DNA of 63,463 bases, the filler included, from an uncultured virus (IMG/VR IMGVR_UViG_2049941000_000142) (lineage: Duplodnaviria; Heunggongvirae; Uroviricota; Caudoviricetes). It is 13 parts of one record of this genome, joined end to end, with 100 filler letters (N's around TTAATTAATTAA, not from the genome) between each part and the next. Parts side by side here need not be neighbours in the genome. Positions count along the whole stretch, not along the records: positions 11,811 to 32,125 come from IMGVR_UViG_2049941000_000142; 12 more parts are not named here. One strand, written 5' to 3'. The notes under the pieces are model-generated. The model was not told the origin of the DNA and searched no databases. It was given only the letters and a program-made list of their open reading frames with translations. Positions within the stretch are counted from its first letter, which is position 1. The number at the start of each line of letters is the position of its first letter. The translations under genes and the position numbers were made by a program. This document shows positions 3,745-32,695 of the stretch, piece by piece.

Positions 3745-5160
3745 TTAATTGTCTCTGCCATAACTGTAGTTACCTCTCCTTATAAATGTTTCAAAATCTC
3801 CCTCGACACCGAGGTCTTCATCACCGAAGTGCTTACGTGTTACAGCCATTGGGAACTCCTCAATCTCCGACTCCCACCGACAGGCATCCGCTCCGTTGTG
3901 CATTGCCCAACAGTATTCGAACCCACCTATGCCGGAGAACAGAGACCCCAATGTGTACGTTGGCTGCACTCCCATCCACTCATCAGTTTCGTGCAACTCC
4001 TGTGTAATGTTTCCAAGGAGTTTAAACCAAAAAGGAATTGCGATACTGTTACCGAGCGACTTNNNNNNNNNNATAGCCATCACCCTTGTGGCTTGGTCTG
4101 TAGCCGTTACCCTCGATTGCCACCGTCAAGGGCGGCTTGTCGCAAAAGGGCAGCCTTCAGAATCTCCGGAAGTTCCTTGCCCCGTCTCTCCGCTCTGTTC
4201 AGAATCCCCTGGCAGGCTTTCGGACTCAAGGCATACTTGCTCAGATCCGCATCCGGCTGGAGTATAGCAGAGAGACAGCACCTTATAGGCTGCCATGCCC
4301 CCATAGTCGCAGACCAGAGAGACTCTCTTTCTTCTTTGTGGAACGCCGTGGAACTGGGCATCATGTACCGTCCATGCAANNNNNNNNNNTGAGAGTCAGA
4401 CAGTACAGTAGGGGAGACATCCTCTGTAAATACGGCATTCCCTTTACCGCCTTGCTGATCTATCCCATAGCACACAACCTGATTGCTGTTTGCATTCCAT
4501 CCACCGGATGATTTAGCCTGAAGTGTTCCGTTGATCTCCTCGTCAAGCTCTCCGTTTCGGATGTCTGCTCCGTAACACACGGACATCTGATTGTCTCCGG
4601 CTTTCGCTCTGAGCGATCCGCTTATGTTATCGCCATAGATATGACCGCCTACCCTGGATGCCGCCCCCGGCTCAAGAGCGAGGACATAGGACTCGCCCCC
4701 ACCATACCGACACTCGCCGGAGTAAAGGGTCTCGGCTATTCCGTTCTCCGGCTGAATGTGTTTGCTCTGTACATCCCACGGATTGTAGCACACACCATGC
4801 TGTTCAACATGATTCAATGTATAGGATACATCTGATACGGAATAGCNNNNNNNNNNGCCAAGGAGTTTAAACCAAAAAGGAATTGCGATACTGTTACCGA
4901 GCGACTTATATTTTGCGGACGAGGAATCCTTATGAACCTTACCCTTGCTGTCCGTCCACTCACCGATGTCTACCCAGCTTACAATCTTTCCATCGACTTC
5001 CTTTTCCGGAAACCCCTGCAGACGATTGCACTCCAACGGCGTGAGTCTTCGTACTATATATTCTTTATCTTCCATTCCATTACTCTCTCTATAGCAGGAT
5101 ATAAACCGCTTATCACATCCTGATGGGTTAGCTTCTCCGGATATCCTCTCGCACATAATG
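3745..5160 (-). CDS. DNA (cytosine-5) methyltransferase, shuffled fragments
   Basis: VRRLTPLECNRLQGFP (motif IX), KSLGNSIA (motif X), TLGSLFSGIGGF and WESEIEEF (motifs I/II), LSKYALSPKACQGILNRA, plus TL/SL-type target-recognition repeats. Confidence 0.8.
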
Positions 5161-5171
5161 TACCGACAACA

Positions 5172-7462
5172 TCATTCATGGTACTTCAAAAGGAACTCCG
5201 GATCGACAGCTTTGAAGCTGTGCTTACCATCGAGACTCCGGCAGACAAGTCCTTCACGGATAGTGTTGCCTATCTGAGAGGGGCCGTGTGCGATCTCAAG
5301 CATCTTCTCCATAGTTCTAGGTATGCTTCCGAGTCCGACTATCGGCACCCACTTCAGACCTGCTTCTCCGGCTATTCGCTTTCCGTCTCCGCTCGGCCAC
5401 CGNNNNNNNNNNGTCCTCTTCATCAGCTTCTTCAGCCTTACTCTCCTGCTCTTTAGTCTGTCCGGCAAGGGCGGCAAGGGTCTCCTCGTCATCGAGTTCG
5501 ATCTCTTTCCTCTCGACAACAGCTTTGACAAAACGGAGAGAAGCACGACGAGTTCCATAGAGTTCGCAGAGTTTGTCAACAGCTTCTTCTGGGGCAACGA
5601 AACTCGGAGTAACAGTAATGCCCTCGACATCGCCGTATCTGGTATCGCACTTCACCTCGATGAACGGAGACATAATGATGTTCTCCGGCAGACGGAACAG
5701 ATAAAGCTGACTGCATTTAGGATGTTTAACAACGACGAAATTCATAATCATTTCTCCTTAATTAATTTTTTATAATCATCACAAGCGGTACATTGTTTCC
5801 GCCTGTGCCACAACGGGAAGTTAGGGATTGGACTATACCATCCTCTCTGATTGTTATCCGGCTATCATTGGGATGGTTGTCAAGACAGACCGGATCGTAC
5901 TGATGCGCAATCTCAATCAGGCATTTAGGAGTTTCANNNNNNNNNNGAAGTTGAACACATACAGATCCGGCTCTGTCAGTTTATACTTGTTGCCCTGAAT
6001 ACCAGGACCGACACACTCGCCCTGGATAGCTACCCATTCAAGATTGTAAGTCCTTGCTATCTTCAGCAACGCATCCTCGATATTATATCTGTCGGATACT
6101 TTCCAATAGCTTGACTCATCCTTGTTGAACAGACGGACATTCCTTGAGCAGACGATGTACTCATACCTCTTGCCGAACAGCCGGTGTGTTTTCTTCACGG
6201 CAAATGTTCCGCTCTGTCCGTCAAGCTTCTCCGTCAACAGCCAAGGTATATCCATATCAAGATAGAACGGAGCATTCTGAATCCTCGTCTCGTCTGTCTT
6301 CGAAATGAAATCCGGAAANNNNNNNNNNNNNNNNNNNNNNNNNNNNNNNNNNNNNNNNNNNNNNNNNNNNNNNNNNNNNNNNNNNNNNNNNNNNNNNNNN
6401 NNNNNNNNNNNNNNNNNNNNNNNNNNNNNNNNNNNNNNNNNNNNNNNNNNNNNNNNNNNNNNNNNNNNNNNNNNNNNNNNNNNNNNNNNNNNNNNNNNNN
6501 NNNNNNNNNNNNNNNNNNNNNNNNNNNNNNNNNNNNNNNNNNNNNNNNNNNNNNNNNNNNNNNNNNNNNNNNNNNNNNNNNNNNNNNNNNNNNNNNNNNN
6601 NNNNNNNNNNNNNNNNNNNNNNNNNNNNNNNNNNNNNNNNNNNNNNNNNNNNNNNNNNNNNNNNNNNNNNNNNNNNNNNNNNNNNNNNNNNNNNNNNNNN
6701 NNNNNNNNNNNNNNNNNNNNNNNNNNNNNNNNNNNNNNNNNNNNNNNNNNNNNNNNNNNNNNNNNNNNNNNNNNNNNNNNNNNNNNNNNNNNNNNNNNNN
6801 NNNNNNNNNNNNNNNNNNNNNNNNNNNNNNNNNNNNNNNNNNNNNNNNNNNNNNNNNNNNNNNNNNNNNNNNNNNNNNNNNNNNNNNNNNNNNNNNNNNN
6901 NNNNNNNNNNNNNNNNNNNNNNNNNNNNNNNNNNNNNNNNNNNNNNNNNNNNNNNNNNNNNNNNNNNNNNNNNNNNNNNNNNNNNNNNNNNNNNNNNNNN
7001 NNNNNNNNNNNNNNNNNNNNNNNNNNNNNNNNNNNNNNNNNNNNNNNNNNNNNNNNNNNNNNNNNNNNNNNNNNNNNNNNNNNNNNNNNNNNNNNNNNNN
7101 NNNNNNNNNNNNNNNNNNNNNNNNNNNNNNNNNNNNNNNNNNNNNNNNNNNNNNNNNNNNNNNNNNNNNNNNNNNNNNNNNNATACCTGCCCGGCAGGTA
7201 GAATGCTGAGAGGGAAGCAGATGCCCTGGGATATACAGCCAGCCATTTTCATTGTCCGGATGTGGCGATCCTTAAGAAAGGAACACCACTCCGCATCCGG
7301 CAGAAGCGAGTCGATCTCGCAGAACACACACAGATCGCCCGGTTTGAACTCGGACTTCTGTACGATGACAGTCCATCCGTCAATCGTGGCAAGACCTATG
7401 CGGTCTTTGTTAGGTATATCCGAGACAGTAGCAATGCGTTTGATCGTCGCAAGCTGTCTCAT
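5172..7462 (-). CDS. ATP-dependent RNA ligase, DRB0094-like, in three pieces (7184-7462, 5947-6317, 5172-5402) with unrelated contigs interleaved
   Basis: N-terminus MRQLATIKRI..CVFCEIDSLLP, KTDETRIQN, motif I TEKLDGQS, IQGECVGPGIQGN, YVFN, REGLVCRS, SFKAV. Confidence 0.85.
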
Positions 7463-11650: not shown

Positions 11651-11810
11651 TGTGCTACCACCATAAACAGCAGACCGCAGAATTTTGATAGGTATTGCGG
11701 AGACCAGGATNNNNNNNNNNNNNNNNNNNNNNNNNNNNNNNNNNNNNNNNNNNNTTAATTAATTAANNNNNNNNNNNNNNNNNNNNNNNNNNNNNNNNNN
11801 NNNNNNNNNN

Positions 11811-14321: not shown

Positions 14322-15043
14322 ATGGAGGGTGGCTACTCCGTTTATAAGCACGTATTTCCAAACGGAAAACAATATGTTGGGTACACTTCTAAAGATCCAA
14401 AGGATAGATGGAAGAATGGAAGTGGGTATGGTACTCAGTCCGTATATAGAGCAATTAAGAAATACGGATGGGATAATATTGAGCCTATTGTTATCCGGAG
14501 CGGATTAAGTGAAGAAGACGCTTTAATGTTGGAGAGAAAGCTTATAAAGCATTACGATCTTTGTAATAGAGACAAGGGGTATAATTTCCATCCAGGTGGT
14601 AAGGCATCTCCATCTGCTTGTATGGAAGCTAGAAGAAAGATAAGTGAATGGCGAAAGCAGAATCAGTTTGGGGAAAAGAACCCAATGTTTGGGAAGCACA
14701 TATCTGATGAAAATAAAGCACTTATANNNNNNNNNNGGAAGAAGAGAGACAAAAGATGCGTGATAGGCATTGGGATGTCTCCGGTGTTAATAATCCGCAT
14801 TATGGTGTTCCTTGTTCAGAAGCTACCAAAGAAAAGATTAGAGAGTCGCAGAGGAAAAGGATGCGACCGGTTAATCAGTATACATTGGGTGGAGAATTCA
14901 TCGCCTCCTTCGAAAGTATCCATGAAGCTGTTAGGCGTACTGGCGTATGCAAGTCGGGCATTATGGATTGTTGCAAAAAAGACATTAAATATACGCATGG
15001 CTTTGTGTTTAGGTATGCGGATGAAGAGGGTGGTAGTGGTTGA
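14322..15043 (+). CDS. Free-standing GIY-YIG homing endonuclease with NUMOD-type DNA-binding tail (internal gap)
   Basis: SVYKHVFPNGKQYVGYT..RW..G.GY, ERKLIK..GYN, GEKNPMFGKH, RPVNQYTLGGEFIASFESIHEA. Confidence 0.85.
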
Positions 15044-17142
15044 AACAAGAATACACAAACACCAAGACTGACGTATTTCGCTACTACGAATTAGGTCGGC
15101 AGTATAATAACCAGCTTGTACCGAATCAGTACACTCTGGTTAATACGAACATTGAGTTCTTTGCCGGTAACCAGTGGCTGCATATTACGGAATCCCCGGC
15201 TATGCAGAGACTTGCGAGACCGACATTTAATATTATAAAACGAATTACATCGCTGTTTGTTGCGTCGCTTACATCGAGCAACACAACGATTAACTTTGAG
15301 CCTTTGTCCTATTACGATGGGGATAATATGAAAGATCCTGAGAACAACGCTGCGGTGATCGCAACAGCGGAAGTGCGGAATCTGTTTGAGAAATTCAAAA
15401 TGGAGTACCGCATTCGTGAAGCGTTGTTTGACGGCGCTCAGACCGGAGATTACTGCGCCCATTTCTACTGGAACGCAGACGCTGTTCCGTATGGCGGTGC
15501 ATTCGGCCCCTACAAAGGCGAGATAGAAATGGAACTCGTGGATGGGATCAATGTCATGTTTGGCAATCCGAACACACCGGATGTGGAATCCCAGCCGTAT
15601 ATTCTTCTCCTTGGGAGAGATACAGTAGAGTTCCTGAAAGAAGAAGCGGAGTTATTCGCTAAGTCACGAACAAAACGTGGCGGAACAGCCGAGAATGACA
15701 TTGTTATTGACTCACTGAATGCAGACTCCGAGTGGCAGTGGCAGGCAGGTATCGGCGGAAGAACAGAACTTACTCCGTCTGATGACCGTACAGGGAAAGC
15801 CTTGTACGGCATTTTATATACGAAAGTTACAAAAGAAGAACCTGTGATCAACCCAAAGACCGGACTTCAGGAGCAGACTCCGATGCTGGACGATAAGGGC
15901 GATCCGATTCAGATGACAACTGATGACGGAACTCCGATGGTGGATTCCGACGGCGAACCTGTTTATAAAATGAAGCCAGCGACACGGCTTAGGACATCTG
16001 TCCACGTTACGAAAGCAACGAAGACGATGATCATCTACGAAGATGTGGATACCGGACTGAGCAGATACCCGGTTGCCTGGGGCAACTGGGAGAAGCAGAA
16101 GAATCAGTATCATGGTCGTGCATTGGTTACCGGAATCGTTCCGAACCAGATCTTCATCAACAGTATGATGGCGATGATCTTCCGGCATCTGCAGCTTCAG
16201 AGTTTTCCGAAGACTATCTACAATGCCGATCTGATTGGTCAGTGGAACAACGAGGTAGGTGCAGCTATCGGCGTTCATANNNNNNNNNNTCTGAGAGATG
16301 TGGCTACATCGATTCAGCCTGCGGATATGTCCAACCAGATTGTTATGTGTATTGACCGTGTGATGCAGTACACGAGAGACTGCCTTGGTGCTACGGACGC
16401 ACAGATGGGTAATGTGAGACCGGACAATACTTCCGCTCTGATGGTATTGCAGTCATCCGCTGAAGTTCCTCTTGAGAATACGAGGGCGGGTCTTCACGAA
16501 TGGGTGGAAGACATCGGTGCTATTCTCCTGGATATGATGGGAACGTATTACGGAAAGCGTCCTCTTGTTCGTGAGCGTACATTTGAGGATGTCGCTATGG
16601 GAAAGGGTCAGACTCCTATGATCGATCCGACTACCGGACAGATGATGACTCAGACAGCTACCCATCGTGTGCTTGAGGACTTTGACTTCACACAGCTTAA
16701 GAAACTGTGGTTCAATATCCGTGTTGATGTCGGTGCTACTACTTACTACTCCGAGATCGCTATGGTTCAGACTCTGGACAATCTTCGCCGTGATGGTACG
16801 CTTGAGATCATCGACTACCTTGAGCGTATACCGGACAAGCTGATCCCAAGGAAACAGGATCTGATTGAGGATATTAAGAAGCGTACAGCCGAGGTAGCAC
16901 AGCAGACGGCTGCTATGCAACAGGCTACGCTTGAACAGCAGGGTGGCATGATGCCCGGTCAGCAGGGGCCACAGATATCCAAGAAGCCAAGATCTGATCT
17001 TCAGAATGCCGGATTCCCTAGCATGGGCGGAGATATTTCCGCCGAGAAAGCGATAGGCAATCTGCCTGGGTCAATACAGGCTAAATATAATGATTTGCCT
17101 AGGTCTGCTCAAAAAGCCCTAGTGCAGAAAGGATCTATGTAA
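15040..17142 (+). CDS. Portal protein (P22-like)
   Basis: 700 aa after TerL; NIEFFAGNQW, PTFNIIK, GRALVTGIVPNQIFIN, NTSALMVLQ, Q-rich tail. Confidence 0.85.
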   Translation: MKQEYTNTKTDVFRYYELGRQYNNQLVPNQYTLVNTNIEFFAGNQWLHITESPAMQRLARPTFNIIKRITSLFVASLTSSNTTINFEPLSYYDGDNMKDPENNAAVIATAEVRNLFEKFKMEYRIREALFDGAQTGDYCAHFYWNADAVPYGGAFGPYKGEIEMELVDGINVMFGNPNTPDVESQPYILLLGRDTVEFLKEEAELFAKSRTKRGGTAENDIVIDSLNADSEWQWQAGIGGRTELTPSDDRTGKALYGILYTKVTKEEPVINPKTGLQEQTPMLDDKGDPIQMTTDDGTPMVDSDGEPVYKMKPATRLRTSVHVTKATKTMIIYEDVDTGLSRYPVAWGNWEKQKNQYHGRALVTGIVPNQIFINSMMAMIFRHLQLQSFPKTIYNADLIGQWNNEVGAAIGVHXXXXLRDVATSIQPADMSNQIVMCIDRVMQYTRDCLGATDAQMGNVRPDNTSALMVLQSSAEVPLENTRAGLHEWVEDIGAILLDMMGTYYGKRPLVRERTFEDVAMGKGQTPMIDPTTGQMMTQTATHRVLEDFDFTQLKKLWFNIRVDVGATTYYSEIAMVQTLDNLRRDGTLEIIDYLERIPDKLIPRKQDLIEDIKKRTAEVAQQTAAMQQATLEQQGGMMPGQQGPQISKKPRSDLQNAGFPSMGGDISAEKAIGNLPGSIQAKYNDLPRSAQKALVQKGSM

Positions 17143-17559: not shown

Positions 17560-18491
17560 TATCGGCGAGATTGATGGGCTGATTATGCATACGAAGGATG
17601 AGGCTTGGCAGAAGTCCGGCGAGATCATTACGCTCGAGAAGGATGTGGAAGATCTTAAGAAGTACGCAGATATTAAATCTCCAGCGGATCTGAAGGCCAT
17701 TGCTGCAAGCGGAAAGGCCAGAGAGTATTTTGATATCGGAGATATCATTTATATTCCGTGGACAAACTATACACCGAGTACACCGGTTACTTATTACGTT
17801 CCGTTTGCGGTTGTGCATTTTGGCGACGCATATGATGAGGACGGTGTCAAACATGAGAACCCAATCTGGTTAATGTCGGTTTATGCACAGCCGGAGGAGA
17901 TTCCATTTGATGCTGCTGAAGATACTGTAGTTGATCTTACGAGCGAACCGAATGCCCTTGAGGGTTGGTACTACTGGGGTCTTACTGGTGCGTCTTATAC
18001 AGCTTTGAATCTTTCCGCTGGTACTGCAATTCCGGATACTTACGATAGCGTTCATAAGTGCGGAGTGAATAGCCTTGATGTTCTTCGATATGGGTATAAT
18101 CGATGGAAGGTCTCTGCTTATAGGCAGTGGCTTAACTCCGATGCCGCGAAGAATGAGAACTGGTGGGAGAGTCAGCATACAGGGGATATCGCTCCTACGA
18201 CTACGTATACGAATAAACCTGGATGGCTGTATGGCTTTGCTCCAGAGTGGGGAGAAATTTTCCAGAAAGTGAAAGTGGACACCGCGGCGAATACTGTAAC
18301 AGACAGTGGAGTTACGGACACTACTTATGATTATTTCTTCCTGCCGTCCTTGGAGCAGATGTATGGCTCTCCGCAGGCGGCTGGTGTTGAAGGGGATTAC
18401 TGGGAGTACTGGAAAGAAGAGACCGGACTCGATGCTCCGTCTAATGGGTCTGCAAGCGATACGAATGATGCGAGAAAGATTCCTCCGGTAA
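17560..18491 (+). CDS. DGR target protein (DUF6273-like, predicted C-terminal CLec fold); C-terminus/VR lost in gap
   Basis: YFDIGDII, YNRWKVSAYRQWLNS, TYDYFFLPSLEQM, YWEYWK; directly upstream of avd-TR-RT. Confidence 0.75.
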
Positions 18492-18501
18492 NNNNNNNNN
18501 N

Positions 18502-18898
18502 AAAAAGAAGCAAGAACCGTTTGGAAGTCCAAGTAAAGGCGCAGGCGCTTGCTTCCTATACAGTTAAGATTTGTTCAAATAAAAATGTTTTTAAGCCGGA
18601 GTTTGATGATGAACTCGTTCGAAGGATAAAGGCTTGTGCTTATGACATTTGTGTAAAGCTTTGGTCTGCGAATAATATACGGGCGGAAACGAGTCTTGTT
18701 GATCGCCGTATGCGGTACGAATTGCAGGAAGAAGCTATCCTCCTGTGTGATCAGATGCTCGTTTATATCGGTATCGCTAGATCGGTTTTTCATTTGAAGA
18801 GCAAGAGAATGAAGTACTGGACAGAACAGATTTTAGCTGTTAAGGCCCTGGCACAGAAATGGAAAGAATCGGATGTTAGCCGTTATGGGAAGCCGTAG
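18502..18898 (+). CDS. avd: DGR accessory variability determinant (Avd-like four-helix bundle), start in gap
   Basis: Basic ~130 aa helical protein, KRSKNRLEV..SANNI..RYELQEEAI..YW..KWKESD..RY, immediately before the TR. Confidence 0.8.
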
Positions 18899-18930
18899 CG
18901 TTTAGCATAAAAGGGTGTAGGCTATTGATT

Positions 18931-19056
18931 GCCGTGAACTGCCGTTTGCGTTCCGCGAATCGCTCCAACTCGAACAATGTGTGGAATGTCAACAACGCGG
19001 GATATCTCAACAACAACAATGCGAACAACGCGTATAGGGCGCAGCCGGATTGTGTT
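18931..19056 (+). ncRNA. DGR template repeat (TR), approximate bounds
   Basis: Reads AVNCRLRSANRSNSNNVWNVNNAGYLNNNNANNAYRAQPDCV with 14 AAC/AAT codons; lies between avd and RT; followed by hairpin-rich spacer (19078-19180). Confidence 0.9.
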
Positions 19057-19211
19057 ACTTCTGTCTACAGATGGTTCGCACATAGTGTGAATTGTAAGAT
19101 GAATTAAGACACAAGGAGCCGAATCCCTGTCCTTACGGGCGAACAATACGACTTTGATGCGATCAGCTTACGAGCTGGTATCGCTGTAGACAAAGGAGAA
19201 ACATTTACGAT

Positions 19212-20211
19212 ATGGATGATGGGGCTGTCGTAGGGTATGATGCCTTGTGGGATTCGATGATGAAATGCAAGTGCGGTGTTATGTGGAAATGTTCTGTAGC
19301 GAATTTCGTTCTGAATGGCGTGAGAGAAATCGGAAGACTTTCGGACGAGTTGCTTAACGGAGAATATCACGAGAGACCGCATAAGTATTTTACAATAACC
19401 AGTCCAAAGAAGAGAGACATTATGAGCATCTCTTTTCGTGATAGAGTTTATCAAAGAAGCTTGAACGATGTTGCGATATACCCAGTTATGATTCGGTCTT
19501 TCATCCATGACAACGGTGCGTGTCAGAAAGGGAAAGGAACTGATTTTGCTAGGGATAGGTTTAAATGCCACCTGCAGAGGTTCTATCGAAAACACGGCAG
19601 AAATGGGTATGTTCTTAAGCTGGATATCCGTGGATATTATCCGAATATGCGGCATGACGCGGTTAAGGATAAGTTTCGCAGATANNNNNNNNNNGGGTGA
19701 CGTTGGTTTTAATCCGGGCAGTCAGATTATTCAGATAGCTGGTATCTCACTTCTTGATGACCTTGATCATTACGTTAAGGAGCGGTTAAGGGTGAAGTAC
19801 TATGTTCGCTACATGGATGACATTCTGATTATAGGAGAATCGAAAGAGGAGCTTCTTAAGATTAAGGAAGTGATTCGTAAAGAACTTTTTAAAATCGGAT
19901 TTGAACTTCATGAAGAGAAGAGCAAAGTAATATCGCTCTTAAAGGAAGTACTGTTCCTAGGTTTTAAGTATAGGATTACGGAGACCGGGAGAGTTCTTAT
20001 GATAGTCGATCCCGCCCGCGTAAGAGCCGAACGGAAGAAGTTATTTAGGCTGGTAGGTTTGGCGAAACAAGGAAAAATATCGAAAGAGAAAGTAGACCAG
20101 TGCTACCAGAGTTGGCGCAGTCATGCGCTGAAAGGAAATTCGTGGAAGCTTATTCAAAGGATGGATAGGTATTATCGCAATTTATGGAGGAAAGATACCA
20201 ATGGGTTTTGA
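19212..20211 (+). CDS. DGR reverse transcriptase (internal gap)
   Basis: PKKRDI..FRDRVYQ, ACQKGKGT, YVLKLDIRGYY, GFNPGSQIIQ, YVRYMDD, FLGFKY. Confidence 0.93.
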
Positions 20212-21058: not shown

Positions 21059-22147
21059 ATGGAAAATACAAACGAAAAGGCTCAGGCCATTACCAACGAA
21101 GACGATGCCATTCTGCCGGACGGCTGGACAGGAGACGGAGACTTCTTTGAATGGGCGGCTGGTGGACAGACTGANNNNNNNNNNNNNNNNNNNNNNNNNN
21201 NNNNNNNNNNNNNNNNNNNNNNNNNNNNNNNNNNNNNNNNNNNNNNNNNNNNNNNNNNNNNNNNNNNNNNNNNNNNNNNNNNNNNNNNNNNNNNNNNNNN
21301 NNNNNNNNNNNNNNNNNNNNNNNNNNNNNNNNNNNNNNNNNNNNNNNNNNNNNNNNNNNNNNNNNNNNNTGTAAGTGAAAAGGTTCACCCTGACATTGCG
21401 AAGGACACCGTGTCACGTAAGGTCAGAGAGATCGAGGATAAGGCTATTAAGAACAGGAAATCCTCTTCCGCAGAGGAAAAGGAAGAAACATCAGAAGACA
21501 CCACGACGAAGTCCGGAACCAGAGATTTCAAACCGGAAGTCGCAGAACTTCTTAAGGATTTTCCTGAACTCCATGGAAAGACTCTTCCAAAGGAAGTTGT
21601 CGATGACGCTCTTTCCGGGAAACCGCTGACTATTGCCTACAGACAGTATATCCAGAAGCAGTTGAAAGCCGAAAACGCCAAACTCCAAAAAGAAAATGAA
21701 ACATTAAAACAGAATGCGGTGTATCCTCCGGTTCNNNNNNNNNNCTCAGACTGACGAGGGTGACCAGCCCGCCACGCCGGAAGAACCTAAAGAGCAGTCT
21801 ACAACAATAAGATTTGATGCGAACATCAACCATCGTAAGAAGAGTGTTNNNNNNNNNNCTGCCGGAGATATACGAAAAGGCTTATGCCGCTGATAAGTTC
21901 AGAAAGAAGCTTAGCGATAAGACGGCTGAACTTGAGGAAGCGGAAGTAGTAAGTCAGCTTCTTGGCTATTCAAGCGTTAAAGAGATGCTCGCCGCAGCGA
22001 AGAAGAGCTATGAGGATTCTGAAGTTGAACGCCNNNNNNNNNNCGGCTAAACGCGCACCTGTCAGGGGTGTCACGAGGGGCAGCGCAACACAGGAAGGAC
22101 CGGAAGATCCGTTTCTTCGTGGTTTTAATGCGACAGGCTTATACTGA
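21059..22147 (+). CDS. Probable capsid scaffolding protein (shuffled fragments)
   Basis: Acidic/coiled-coil, ends PEDPFLRGF; immediately precedes the capsid start. Confidence 0.6.
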
Positions 22148-22212
22148 TCTTTATTTCCTGACAGCCGCGTGACTGTCATCCGCATGGCCATATAGAAAGG
22201 AATGATTAAATT

Positions 22213-22270
22213 ATGGCAGGCGGAATTAATCTCGCTACTAAATATTCTCCCGTCGTAGACGAGAGATGGT
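22213..22270 (+). CDS. Major capsid protein exon 1
   Basis: RBS GAAAGGA; MAGGINLATKYSPVVDERW, then an in-frame TGA spanning the predicted splice site. Confidence 0.8.
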
Positions 22271-22333
22271 GACAGAGTTGCCCACTACGGCAGTAATGTC
22301 GTAGATGAATCGACCAAAATCGGTGAAAGCTAA
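22271..22333 (+). ncRNA. Group I intron, 5' part (P1, P2, P3, P4)
   Basis: P1 GGT|GAC-AGA-GTTGCC with U.G at the splice site; P2 CTACGGCA-GTAA-TGTCGTAG; P3 ATCGACCA; then AAAATCGGTGAAAGCTAA. Confidence 0.82.
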
Positions 22334-23085
22334 ATGAGTGAAGAATATTTAATCTATAAGCATACCTCACCAAGTAATAAAGTTTACATCGGAATAACAA
22401 GCCAAACACCGGAGAAGCGGTGGCATGGCGGAGCGAACTATAGCGGTCAGCCTTATTTCTATAACGCTATTCGTAANNNNNNNNNNNNNNNNNNNNNNNN
22501 NNNNNNNNNNNNNNNNNNNNNNNNNNNNNNNNNNNNNNNNNNNNNNNNNNNNNNNNNNNNNNNNNNNNNNNNNNNNNNNNNNNNNNNNNNNNNNNNNNNN
22601 NNNNNNNNNNNNNNNNNNNNNNNNNNNNNNNNNNNNNNNNNNNNNNNNNNNNNNNNNNNNNNNNNNNNNNNNNNNNNNNNNNNNNNNNNNNNNNNNNNNN
22701 NNNNNNNNNNNNNNNNNNNNNNNNNNNNNNNNNNNNNNNNNNNNNNNNNNNNNNNNNNNNNNNNNNNNNNNNNNNNNNTAATTTTAAGCACGATATTATC
22801 CGATCCGGTCTAACGGAAGAGGAAGCTAAAATAGCGGAGAGAAAATTAATTAAGAGGTATGACAGTCGTAATAGGGAATTCGGTTATAATGCCACATCTG
22901 GTGGGGATATAAGTCCTATGAAGAGTATGCAAGCGAGAGCGAAAAGCTCGGCTTCTCATAAGGGGAAAGCGATGCTTCCTCAGACGAGGGCAGCTCTTCT
23001 TAATAGTAGGCTTGGTATTTCTCTTTCCGAGGATCATAAGTCTAAAATATCATCTTCCATTTCAGAACTTTGGAAAGACCCTGAG
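22334..23085 (+). CDS. Intron-encoded GIY-YIG homing endonuclease (gapped)
   Basis: LIYKHTSPSNKVYIGIT..RW, ERKLIKRY..GYNATSGG, LSEDHKSKIS. Confidence 0.85.
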
Positions 23086-23593
23086 NNNNNNNNNNNNNNN
23101 NNNNNNNNNNNNNNNNNNNNNNNNNNNNNNNNNNNNNNNNNNNNNNNNNNNNNNNNNNNNNNNNNNNNNNNNNNNNNNNNNNNNNNNNNNNNNNNNNNNN
23201 NNNNNNNNNNNNNNNNNNNNNNNNNNNNNNNNNNNNNNNNNNNNNNNNNNNNNNNNNNNNNNNNNNNNNNNNNNNNNNNNNNNNNNNNNNNNNNNNNNNN
23301 NNNNNNNNNNNNNNNNNNNNNNNNNNNNNNNNNNNNNNNNNNNNNNNNNNNNNNNNNNNNNNNNNNNNNNNNNNNNNNNNNNNNNNNNNNNNNNNNNNNN
23401 NNNNNNNNNNNNNNNNNNNNNNNNNNNNNNNNNNNNNNNNNNNNNNNNNNNNNNNNNNNNNNNNNNNNNNNNNNNNNNNNNNNNNNNNNNNNNNNNNNNN
23501 NNNNNNNNNNNNNNNNNNNNNNNNNNNNNNNNNNNNNNNNNNNNNNNNNNNNNNNNNNNNNNNNNNNNNNNNNNNNNNNNNNNNNNNNNNNNN

Positions 23594-23956
23594 ACGATCT
23601 ACGACTGTTTCGTTCTCAACGAGAAGCGTTATGCTCTCTACTACCACGGCGGACAGACCGTGTTCAAGGTGCTTGATGCTATGAGTGCTGCAACCGACAC
23701 TGGCAAGACTACTCTTATTATCAATGCGCAGCTTGATGCTCCCACCAATAAGTGGTACTACATGACCGCAACTTCCGCTGCAGGTCTGACGGCTATCACT
23801 TATGGTACTGCGATCACTACCGGAAACTGGACTCAGCTTACGGCTAATGCCACTGAGATCACTCCGACCGCGAACCATGTTATCGCTCGTATCGTAGAGG
23901 TCGATAGCGCCAATAAGCCGATCGCATTTGCGGATGTTCCGCTGAATATCGGCTGA
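23594..23956 (+). CDS. Major capsid protein C-terminal fragment with beta-rich extension (misordered contig)
   Basis: TIYDCFVLNEKRYALYYH is a typical capsid C-terminus; followed by a hairpin. Confidence 0.7.
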   Translation, partial: TIYDCFVLNEKRYALYYHGGQTVFKVLDAMSAATDTGKTTLIINAQLDAPTNKWYYMTATSAAGLTAITYGTAITTGNWTQLTANATEITPTANHVIARIVEVDSANKPIAFADVPLNIG

Positions 23957-23971
23957 TAGTTTTTAACTTTA

Positions 23972-24012
23972 TAGAGGGATTACTGNNNNNNNNNNAATGG
24001 TAATCCCTCTAA
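23972..24012 (+). terminator. Probable hairpin terminator after the capsid gene (loop in gap)
   Basis: AGAGGGATTAC ... GTAATCCCTCT inverted repeat. Confidence 0.55.
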
Positions 24013-24040
24013 TTTCTTATGTTAAGGAGAAGAGAGATAA

Positions 24041-24614
24041 ATGACATACGGCGAATTAAAGAACAGAGTACTCCAGTATATCTTCTCCTATTCCATAGCT
24101 GGAGACGAAATTCAATTGTCTTATAACAATCAGGAAGACTATGTGAAACAGATCCCGGGTCTTTTGAACTCTGCTCAAACTTACATTTATCAGGTGAAGC
24201 ATTTTGAAGCAGCTGTTAAATTAAGCGATCTGGCGAGGGAAGACTTCGGAGACAGCGATATGTACATTCTTCCGGATGATTGCCTTAAGATGAAACCCGG
24301 TTTGATTCTCCCACAGGGCGGTGGATTCAGACCACAGTTTGTACGTTTTAACAACTATAAACTCTTTGGGGGAAATAAGCTTCTTGTTCCGAAAGGAATG
24401 GGCGATAAGCTTCTTATGGAATATTGGAAGCGCAGTGTTCCTCTTCCGGAGAATATTCCGGACAGTTATGTTTTGAAAAATACGGACGAGGTGAATGAAC
24501 TTCTTCCGTTCTATATTGCAGCATTCGTTGTGATGTATGACGATGCTTTCCGATACTCCGCACTATATAATGAATTTGAAACCAGACTTCAGAGACTCGC
24601 TCCGAATCCCTTGC
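24041..24614 (+). CDS. Putative head-tail adaptor
   Basis: MTYGELKNRVL..YILPDDCLK..LLPFYIAA; first gene after the capsid. Confidence 0.55.
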
Positions 24615-24625
24615 NNNNNNNNNNT

Positions 24626-25242
24626 GGCTCTGGGTAATAAATATGATTTCACCGGAGAAAAGACCGTAAAAGTTTATAGTATCCCCATCAGCGTGATGAA
24701 GGACTACTCCCGCACCGGCATTGCTCGTTATGGTTCTCCGGACGATCTCACTCGTAATGTCCAGACCCTGACGATCACTAAGGACAGGGCATTTAATTTC
24801 ATAATTGACAAGGGAGACAAACTCCAGTCTGAGATGGTCTCCGATGCAGGTCAGGCTCTTGCCCGCCAGCTTCGTGAAGTTGTTGTTCCGGAATTTGACA
24901 GCTACTGCTTCGCCAAGTTCGCACAGGCCGCGAAAGACGCAGGTGGTTATGCAACTACGGCTGTGACCGCTTCCAACGCTTATGCCTGCTTCCTTGCCGC
25001 TATGGAATATCTGGGTGACCACAATGTTCCTGAAGCCGGTCGTGTAGCTTTCTGCACTTATAAGTTTGCCAACTTTATGATGCAGGACCCGGCCTTTATG
25101 AAGTACAGCGATAAGTCCCAGGAGATGGTTGTCAAGGGTATCCTTGGCGAAGTCGATGGGTGCAAGATCGTTAAAGTTCCTTCTAGCCGTCTCCCTGCCG
25201 GAGCAGCGTTTATTCTCGCTCATGCAGAAGCCGCTGTCGGCC
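24626..25242 (+). CDS. Major capsid protein central fragment
   Basis: LALGNKYDFTGEKTVKVYSIP..DY.R..RYG..QTLTITKDRAFNFIIDKGD..VVVPEFDSY..GEVDGCKIVKVPS. Confidence 0.88.
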
Positions 25243-25252
25243 NNNNNNNNNN

Positions 25253-25379
25253 AATAAAATATCCCCAAGAGTGGTCGATATCCGTTACAATTCCTTTCTT
25301 GTATCGGATAAAAATGTACTCTGAACTTATGGGAAACCATAAGAGCTATCGGATAAAGAGCCGATAGGCTAACAAATTG
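25253..25379 (+). ncRNA. Group I intron, 3' part (P3', P8, P7', P9, terminal G); exon 2 starts at 25380
   Basis: TGGTCGAT complements the 5' P3 strand; P8 ATCCG..CGGAT; S-like AAAATGTACTCTGAACT; CTTATGG-GAAA-CCATAAG; CTATCGG..CCGATAG; ends TAACAAATTG. Confidence 0.82.
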
Positions 25380-25801
25380 ATCTCGAATCCCAGGCAGTTN
25401 NNNNNNNNNNNNNNNNNNNNNNNNNNNNNNNNNNNNNNNNNNNNNNNNNNNNNNNNNNNNNNNNNNNNNNNNNNNNNNNNNNNNNNNNNNNNNNNNNNNN
25501 NNNNNNNNNNNNNNNNNNNNNNNNNNNNNNNNNNNNNNNNNNNNNNNNNNNNNNNNNNNNNNNNNNNNNNNNNNNNNNNNNNNNNNNNNNNNNNNNNNNN
25601 NNNNNNNNNNNNNNNNNNNNNNNNNNNNNNNNNNNNNNNNNNNNNNNNNNNNNNNNNNNNNNNNNNNNNNNNNNNNNNNNNNNNNNNNNNNNNNNNNNNN
25701 NNNNNNNNNNNNNNNNNNNNNNNNNNNNNNNNNNNNNNNNNNNNNNNNNNNNNNNNNNNNNNNNNNNNNNNNNNNNNNNNNNNNNNNNNNNNNNNNNNNN
25801 N

Positions 25802-32125: not shown

Positions 32126-32695
32126 NNNNNNNNNNNNNNNNNNNNNNNNNNNNNNNNNNNNNNNNNNNNTTAATTAATTAANNNNNNNNNNNNNNNNNNN
32201 NNNNNNNNNNNNNNNNNNNNNNNNNTTATAAATCTATGCCAGGGCGGAGAGTCTACGATTACAGTTTATGGCCCTGGTACTTCAAGTATCTCGGTAACCG
32301 GTGGTGGTGAAACTGTAACAGGGACTATTGCATCCGGTTCGACTAGTGTTTCATTAAAAGTTCATACGATATCCACTTATACGGTAACTTGTACTTATAG
32401 CAATTCCACAAAATCGGGTACTGTTTCTATAACCACTTTCGGAGAATCAAAATCGATTTCCTTCTCTTACNNNNNNNNNNNNNNNNNNNNNNNNNNNNNN
32501 NNNNNNNNNNNNNNNNNNNNNNNNNNNNNNNNNNNNNNNNNNNNNNNNNNNNNNNNNNNNNNNNNNNNNNNNNNNNNNNNNNNNNNNNNNNNNNNNNNNN
32601 NNNNNNNNNNNNNNNNNNNNNNNNNNNNNNNNNNNNNNNNNNNNNNNNNNNNNNNNNNNNNNNNNNNNNNNNNNNNNNNNNNNNNNNNNNNNNNN

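Follow-up and report, generated by a model that had tools for sequence, protein, structure and literature searches.

Sequence evidence for a GIY-YIG group I intron in the major capsid gene of an uncultured tailed phage

Judged from its sequence, an element inserted between the first and second bases of codon 20 of the major capsid gene of an uncultured virus of the Caudoviricetes is a group I intron, 926 nt long and IA-like, with an open reading frame for a GIY-YIG endonuclease in its L5 loop. The best explanation of the locus, and one that we regard as very probable, is that this one intron splits the capsid gene, splices from its message and homes by means of the endonuclease. The stretch of DNA analysed (the window, 63,463 nt with filler) consists of short pieces between N runs; TTAATTAATTAA linkers delimit a scaffold of ~11.8-32.1 kb on which the terminase, portal, capsid, adaptor, and tail genes all lie. 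Among public runs, bovine gut metagenomes gave the best matches to the window sequence. All the features cited in a preliminary description of this locus are present in the window.

The interrupted capsid gene and the ribozyme parts

The capsid gene is read from four pieces on the + strand. The last base of exon 1 (22213..22270, 19 codons and 1 nt) is the U that forms the U.G pair at the 5' splice site, and this exon matches codons 1-19 of an intronless capsid homolog of 376 aa (L001) at 95%. The start of exon 2 (25380..25399), which holds the P10 partner, is supported by joints in runs X1, X6, and X20 and by loci L042, L068, and L071, and continues after 1 nt at 24625. Codons 27-233 (24625..25242), the middle of the protein, are 90% identical to L001, and 24627-25241 was identified as the major head protein (phrog_422, E=3.9e-43; L001 itself, E=4e-59). 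After a 71-nt gap, sized from the X1 contig, the C-terminal 120 codons and the stop follow (23594..23956). This last piece also gave a weak SbsC-like domain match. The joined gene of 58+1073 nt encodes 376 codons plus stop, the same as L001, which in turn matches the solved capsid PDB 8e16 (E=5e-8). The family is homologous to annotated Bacillus phage capsids (~43% identity), and the capsids of the nearest named phages, from Streptococcus, Bacillus, and Geobacillus, are 43-49% identical. Within the window, neither a second capsid gene copy nor a variable repeat matching a DGR-like template was found.

Four of the 20 runs (X1, X5, X6, and X20) were mapped on 22044-25399, the small-share runs X7-X19 being left out. 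In X1, a single 38,285-nt contig of even depth holds every piece, arranged as synteny had predicted (22044-22476, 12 nt, 22779-23085, 274 nt, 25253-25399, 1 nt, 24625-25242, 71 nt, 23594-24609), which places them on the same molecule and, through the gap sizes, gives the intron length of 926 nt. X1 may be the source of the window, and hence is not independent of it. No useful overlaps were present between contig ends within the window. The 71-nt gap plus one base equals exactly the 24 missing codons; a second intron inside it was thereby ruled out, and this allele therefore holds one intron. The spliced N-terminus had been expected to run into LALGNKYDFTG; the join is real, but the single base between the pieces makes codon 27 Met (ATG) rather than Leu. 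Run X6, from another study, also contains the intron, with the 5' border on one contig, the 3' border on a second contig, and no differences over 22175-22476.

The 5' ribozyme part (22271..22333, + strand) was assigned by homology with L071 and the family, by pairing, and by a fold test. L071 is a metagenome locus with a complete intron of 924 nt at the same capsid site, within 2 nt of the length of the window intron. P1 (22268-22282) pairs 22268-22273 with 22277-22282 at 6/6 positions and places U22270.G22280 at the 5' splice site, a U.G pair also present in L071. It is followed by P2 (22285-22304), which pairs 8/8 below a GUAA loop, by the P3 5' strand (22309-22316), J3/4, the P4 5' strand (22320-22325), J4/5, and the P5 5' strand (22328-22330). 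The IGS/P10 strand lies at 22275-22279, and P10 pairs 4/5; both P1 and P10 are retained in the window and L071, though the 5' part matches at just 45/73 positions. The 3' part (25253..25379, + strand) comprises the P7.1 3' strand, the P3 3' strand (25272-25279), P8 (25280-25309), J8/7, the P7 3' strand (25317-25322), P9 with its GAAA loop (25326-25343), P9.1 (25346-25367), and the terminal G25379, with the joint ending GA..TG; P8, P9, and P9.1 pair in full. P3 itself pairs 8/8, and of the two exact partners for its 5' strand on the window + strand, the copy at 25272-25279 occupies the family position of P3'. The splice sites, the U.G pair and the P3 pairing proposed in the preliminary description are thus upheld.

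The 3' piece folds better than all of its shuffles (z=-3.6, 0/200), and the fold of the 5' piece is less clear (z=-2.1, 5/200). Of the P3-P7-P8 core with its bulged G-binding site, P3, P8, and the P7 3' strand are all in the window, and the P7 5' strand comes from L071 and from a 30-nt loose end of the second X6 contig, which shows the strand predicted from the window P7 3' strand. The 5' strands of P4 and P5 are likewise visible, with their 3' strands in the 274-nt gap; this gap spans the end of the ORF, P5'/P4'/P6, and most of P7 5', where an intact core and ORF end are assumed from L071, in which P4-P5-P6 is complete.

Intron family and endonuclease frame

A check against group I models, suggested earlier, gave a divided result. 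The Rfam group I model (RF00028) had no match in the window at gathering and E-value thresholds, but our family model R1, built without the window, matched 25235-25380 at 80.9 bits as its sole match in the window; full relatives score 139-157 bits, with rough E-values. Scanning seven relative loci with Rfam gave good matches for introns of other cores only, this family yielding one match of 20.5 bits. The limits of RF00028 have been described (PMC6125680 and, in its available part, PMC11878797, which also notes that existing models miss phage introns).

The core pattern recurs in at least 118 stretches of viral contigs. For covariation analysis, 21 of the 29 ORF-less copies among the matches listed were used, near-duplicates and two with doubtful ends being excluded. 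Across these relatives, 97.5% of 983 cells in the named structure are paired, compared with 31-42% in slid controls, a figure biased in favour of the structure because it was read off one of the 21 sequences. Two-sided changes occur at 29/47 pairs, and P3 (7/7 pairs), P7.1, P8, P9, and P9.1 all covary, as does one of the six pairs of P7. An extra helix between P7 and P3 is the mark of subgroup IA. The IA-like assignment follows from such a helix in this family, P7.1, which is 99% paired with covariation at 4/5 pairs (the P7.1/P7.2 helices are named in PMC3984707, as far as its available text goes). In all 59 parsed copies (48 and 11, the 11 mostly kin), one P7 pair covaries with a purine of L9.1. 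Read by the GNRA-receptor rule, this pattern fits a tertiary contact. L5 ranges from 10 to ~1050 nt in the family. Of 41 downstream exons scanned, 29 have PHROG matches, mainly terminase, tape measure, and nrdD, with single cases of polymerase, ATPase, and another capsid. A widespread phage intron family of capsid, terminase, tape measure, nrdD, and polymerase genes is thus missed by the Rfam model, and such capsid genes are therefore annotated as fragments.

The ATG of the GIY-YIG frame (22334) comes after the 5' strands of P4 and P5, which agrees with the insertion in the P5 region proposed earlier and with L071, in which a 222-aa GIY-YIG ORF sits in L5 with its stop codon in the P5 3' strand. 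The N-terminal piece in the window (22334..22476, +) matches Pfam PF01541 (E=0.0016, under the cut-off) and phrog_314 and is 71% identical to the L071 ORF; the second piece (22779..23085, +; phrog_314, E=3.6e-13; 61% identity) continues across the 12-nt gap, which preserves the frame. The product is predicted at ~221 aa, with its last ~67 codons in the 274-nt gap. The Tyr, Gly, Arg, Glu, and Asn motif residues of the domain, whose roles we take to be those in I-TevI, are present across both pieces. The L071 ORF clears the PF01541 cut-off (28.9 vs 22.6) and has NUMOD-like matches, slightly below cut-off, that would represent a C-terminal DNA-binding module, which the window pieces do not show; a PDB search with the nuclease gave no match. 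A possible Shine-Dalgarno of 5 nt lies within the P4 5' strand, 7 nt ahead of the ATG. The same match stands 17 nt from the ATG in L071, so the spacing is not conserved. Speculatively, this site could render translation of the nuclease and folding of the core mutually exclusive.

It is unlikely, given these features, that a real intron has in this copy lost its mobility or its efficiency of splicing, either through a break in the ORF or core or because the prophage is defective. Such damage could sit in the 274-nt middle, outside the visible pieces; decayed ORFs do occur in relatives (a remnant in L046, a stop in L051), and the RNA run mapped, X20, does not cover the intron. However, every visible helix pairs, the 154 visible or bridged codons are open with the catalytic motifs kept, the length agrees with L071 to within 2 nt, and a near-identical copy recurs in a second study. 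The capsid intron of this phage is probably mobile.

Alleles with and without the intron and dependence of the capsid on splicing

The search for intronless capsid alleles, proposed in the preliminary description, succeeded. Locus L042 has no intron at this site and encodes the residues that splicing would yield, and the exact joint 22270>25380 occurs on a single contig from DNA run X5 and on another from RNA run X20. Both contigs have 20 letters on the short side, below our 31-letter bar for bridging; the evidence from X5 is its joining contig, and missing intron cover in X5 or X20 by itself proves nothing. A same-site pattern gave 23 matches in metagenome contigs, two of them real (L071 and L068) and the others by chance, and one chance match in viral contigs, in an unrelated gene. 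L068 carries the 3' end at the same site and, at codon 93, another intron that lacks an ORF. At codon 20, no intron was present in any of 52 viral capsid loci, three of which do not include this part of the gene. Intron-plus and intron-minus alleles occur among close strains.

The spliced junction had been singled out for a check in RNA. It was found in X20, in a contig of depth 2.1 with 8 differences over 192 nt of exon 2, but this was rejected as proof of splicing: the run is without intron cover, and DNA run X5 contains this joint as well, so that the contig is ambiguous and may come from an intronless strain. We infer splicing of the capsid intron, with folding, two transesterifications, and frame restoration, from known group I chemistry. 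Unspliced RNA meets TGA at codon 20, as had been claimed; the triplet spans the 5' splice site, and ribosomes would stop there. Read-through of this TGA was considered and dismissed, TAA following eight codons on. An in-frame stop at the intron start is a common feature (PMC3984707, PMC2504315, in the parts available). The ribozyme would fold, an outside guanosine would cut after U22270, P10 would align exon 2, and ligation at G25379 would restore the 376-codon frame. There are strong grounds to infer that capsid production needs splicing, because of the TGA at codon 20, the single capsid gene in the window, and the conserved N-terminus. The GIY-YIG protein would cut intronless capsid alleles near codon 20 in co-infection, and the intron would thereby spread by homing, as a selfish element that the phage may tolerate because splicing repairs the message.

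Splicing would be optional if translation of the capsid began within exon 2, at codon 27, where the bridging base creates an in-frame ATG. We consider this very unlikely: the Shine-Dalgarno match upstream of that codon is at most 3 nt, vs 5 nt for the true start codon, every intronless relative that we examined retains the first 26 residues, and the alignment of this N-terminal stretch with the solved capsid 8e16 begins at residue 11. Least credible is that assembly had fused an intronless capsid gene with an intron of different origin. In its favour, the window is a scaffold with many gaps and a scrambled order of pieces, and the sample contains several related introns whose near-identical 3' ends appear as loose ends; it is nevertheless already contradicted by the even single contig of X1, by both intron-exon borders on contigs of the independent run X6, and by the same-site introns of L071 and L068.

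The capsid gene as an intron target and comparison with known systems

The 52 viral capsid loci, which include several near-duplicates, comprise 37 uninterrupted genes, 12 with introns, and three cut by contig ends. Counting all loci, introns occupy 11 sites, after codons 19 (+1 nt), 92 (+2), 97 (+2), 115, 162, 238, 240 (+2), 250, 251 (+1), 252 (+2), and 255. Splice sites were called automatically, with 3/23 set by eye (L071, the second L132 intron, and L130); because the script demanded a terminal G and favoured U, these letters provide no independent test. The introns at codons 115 and 162 have a different core and are detected by Rfam, and the nucleases of related capsid introns differ (GIY-YIG, HNH, and others). 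L003 has two introns flanking a 44-nt exon. L006, L045, and L051 share no intron site despite 92-96% identity across 204 nt of exon. Greater conservation of intron sites than of the rest of the capsid was not significant (p=0.12, six clusters). The capsid family has been invaded by introns many times, and the window intron is a well-supported new example of a known phenomenon.

A rough tree built from 65 3' cores places the L071 intron, at codon 20, among codon-93 introns (94/77, below the strong mark), and the L071 nuclease is closest to those of codon-93 introns (36-39% identity). The grouping and the nearest nucleases suggest a possible move of the intron within the capsid gene. These two observations, together with the three close strains that share no site, could be joined in a wider and still doubtful reading, in which the capsid gene would be an arena: ribozyme and GIY-YIG frame would have moved together from codon 93 and acquired a new guide, strains would hold differing sets of at least 11 sites, the nucleases would cut the capsid genes of rivals, and the ribosome site in the P4 strand would let each transcript yield either nuclease or spliced capsid message. 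A nuclease that cuts rivals in co-infection is described for PhiPA3 gp210 (PMC11620839, available part).

The supposition that a capsid gene is an unusual intron host does not hold, since capsid introns are published for LittleE, Tuc2009, and crAss-like phages. Already in print are capsid introns, cases of several in a single capsid gene, and related introns that occupy different positions of the same gene; new here is an exactly mapped capsid intron with alleles with and without it in close strains, a pair on which homing into a late structural gene could readily be tested. We found no paper on this capsid family in the open literature searched, and a search for rumen, phage, group I intron, and capsid returned one unrelated paper. 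Introns of this family may already be listed in the 2025 group I intron database cited in the available part of PMC12880540, which also reports a mean of 18.5 introns in Jug phages, with RNA support for 37/76.

In phage T4, the td intron, also of group I, encodes a GIY-YIG homing endonuclease, I-TevI, in L6. The window intron has its ORF in L5, and the td host gene serves DNA metabolism. Among the closest published systems is mycobacteriophage LittleE, where RT-PCR and protein sequencing demonstrated splicing of the capsid intron (Pope et al. 2013, PMC3706429; this and the following papers are cited for their available parts). Both have an endonuclease-ORF intron in the major capsid gene, a U before it and a terminal G, and an intronless relative; the LittleE capsid depends on splicing, as the window capsid probably does. 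In LittleE, however, the ORF lies on the other strand and is of a type different from GIY-YIG, and the host is actinobacterial. Tuc2009, a lactococcal phage of low-GC Gram-positive bacteria, is likewise reported to have a group I intron in its major head gene (PMC3706429, PMC2504315). In crAss-like phages of the Delta and Zeta groups, also from the gut, MCP genes are split by group I introns, one into five fragments (Yutin et al. 2021, PMC7886860); that capsid family is unrelated and its introns were called from protein domains, whereas RNA structure and exact sites are available here. TMP-IVS1/IVS2 of Bacillus cereus group prophages are related introns inserted at different positions of a single late gene, to which they are adapted by means of P1, and an in-frame stop codon lies where the intron begins (Tourasse and Kolsto 2008, PMC2504315), but their host gene is the tape measure gene, they are classified there as IA1/IA2, and most are described without an endonuclease. 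The terL intron of Streptococcus thermophilus phage P4761 (KY705258) and its relatives matches our family model over its full length (73 bits) with near-identical P9/P9.1; it differs in its P4/P7 core sequence and its terminase host gene, in a record that carries no intron annotation.

Linkers and genome surroundings

The sequence TTAATTAATTAA was found flanked by N runs at 12 places in the window, such as 11755-11766 and 32170-32181. These copies are artificial contig linkers, and the window therefore joins several scaffolds. In the related loci L006 and L051, a tRNA cluster lies upstream of the capsid region and matches to the 6A and abiF RNA motifs lie downstream of it (the places given for both observations are 2260-2855 and 6783-7213).

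Both sides of the portal gene

Directly upstream of the portal gene, a second GIY-YIG ORF, which also carries NUMOD3, was identified at window 14322-15071. No intron core was found around this ORF, and the matching place beside the portal gene of the related locus L002 does not contain it. The ORF looks like a free-standing homing endonuclease.

The portal and scaffold genes flank a DGR-like cassette (window 17561-20211), which comprises a DUF6273 protein, an Avd-like ORF, an AAC-rich template-like stretch (near 18900-19140) and pieces of an RT-like ORF. The Avd and RT labels were assigned by eye, and Pfam returned no match for the Avd-like and RT-like pieces tested. A search within the window found no variable repeat for the template-like stretch.

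The capsid gene and its intron family

Codons 238-255 of the capsid family hold six intron sites. Micro-exons of 44 nt (L003:5628-5671) and 36 nt (L006:5504-5539) are each flanked by two introns in two related loci. The capsid C-terminal extension of around 100 residues (window 23594-23956) shows a weak match to an SbsC-like domain and is less conserved than the capsid core. In the L006 capsid intron (4642-5503), the GIY-YIG ORF is located 3' of the P7 5' strand, in the P7.1 region and not in L5.

Further family members were observed at loose contig ends of the public sequencing run X1, which may be the source of the window, one of them followed by capsid codons near 241 from another phage. 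Unannotated family introns are also present in the deposited genomes of S. thermophilus phage P4761 (L195, KY705258.1, 982-1271) and PQ006093.1 (L196, 3000-3228), and part of their sequence is common to 105 phage records. Across the family alignment (A1), the second-position pair of P7 and a purine in L9.1 (window 25320 and 25358) covary in 59/59 parsed copies, among them the distant S. thermophilus phage intron.
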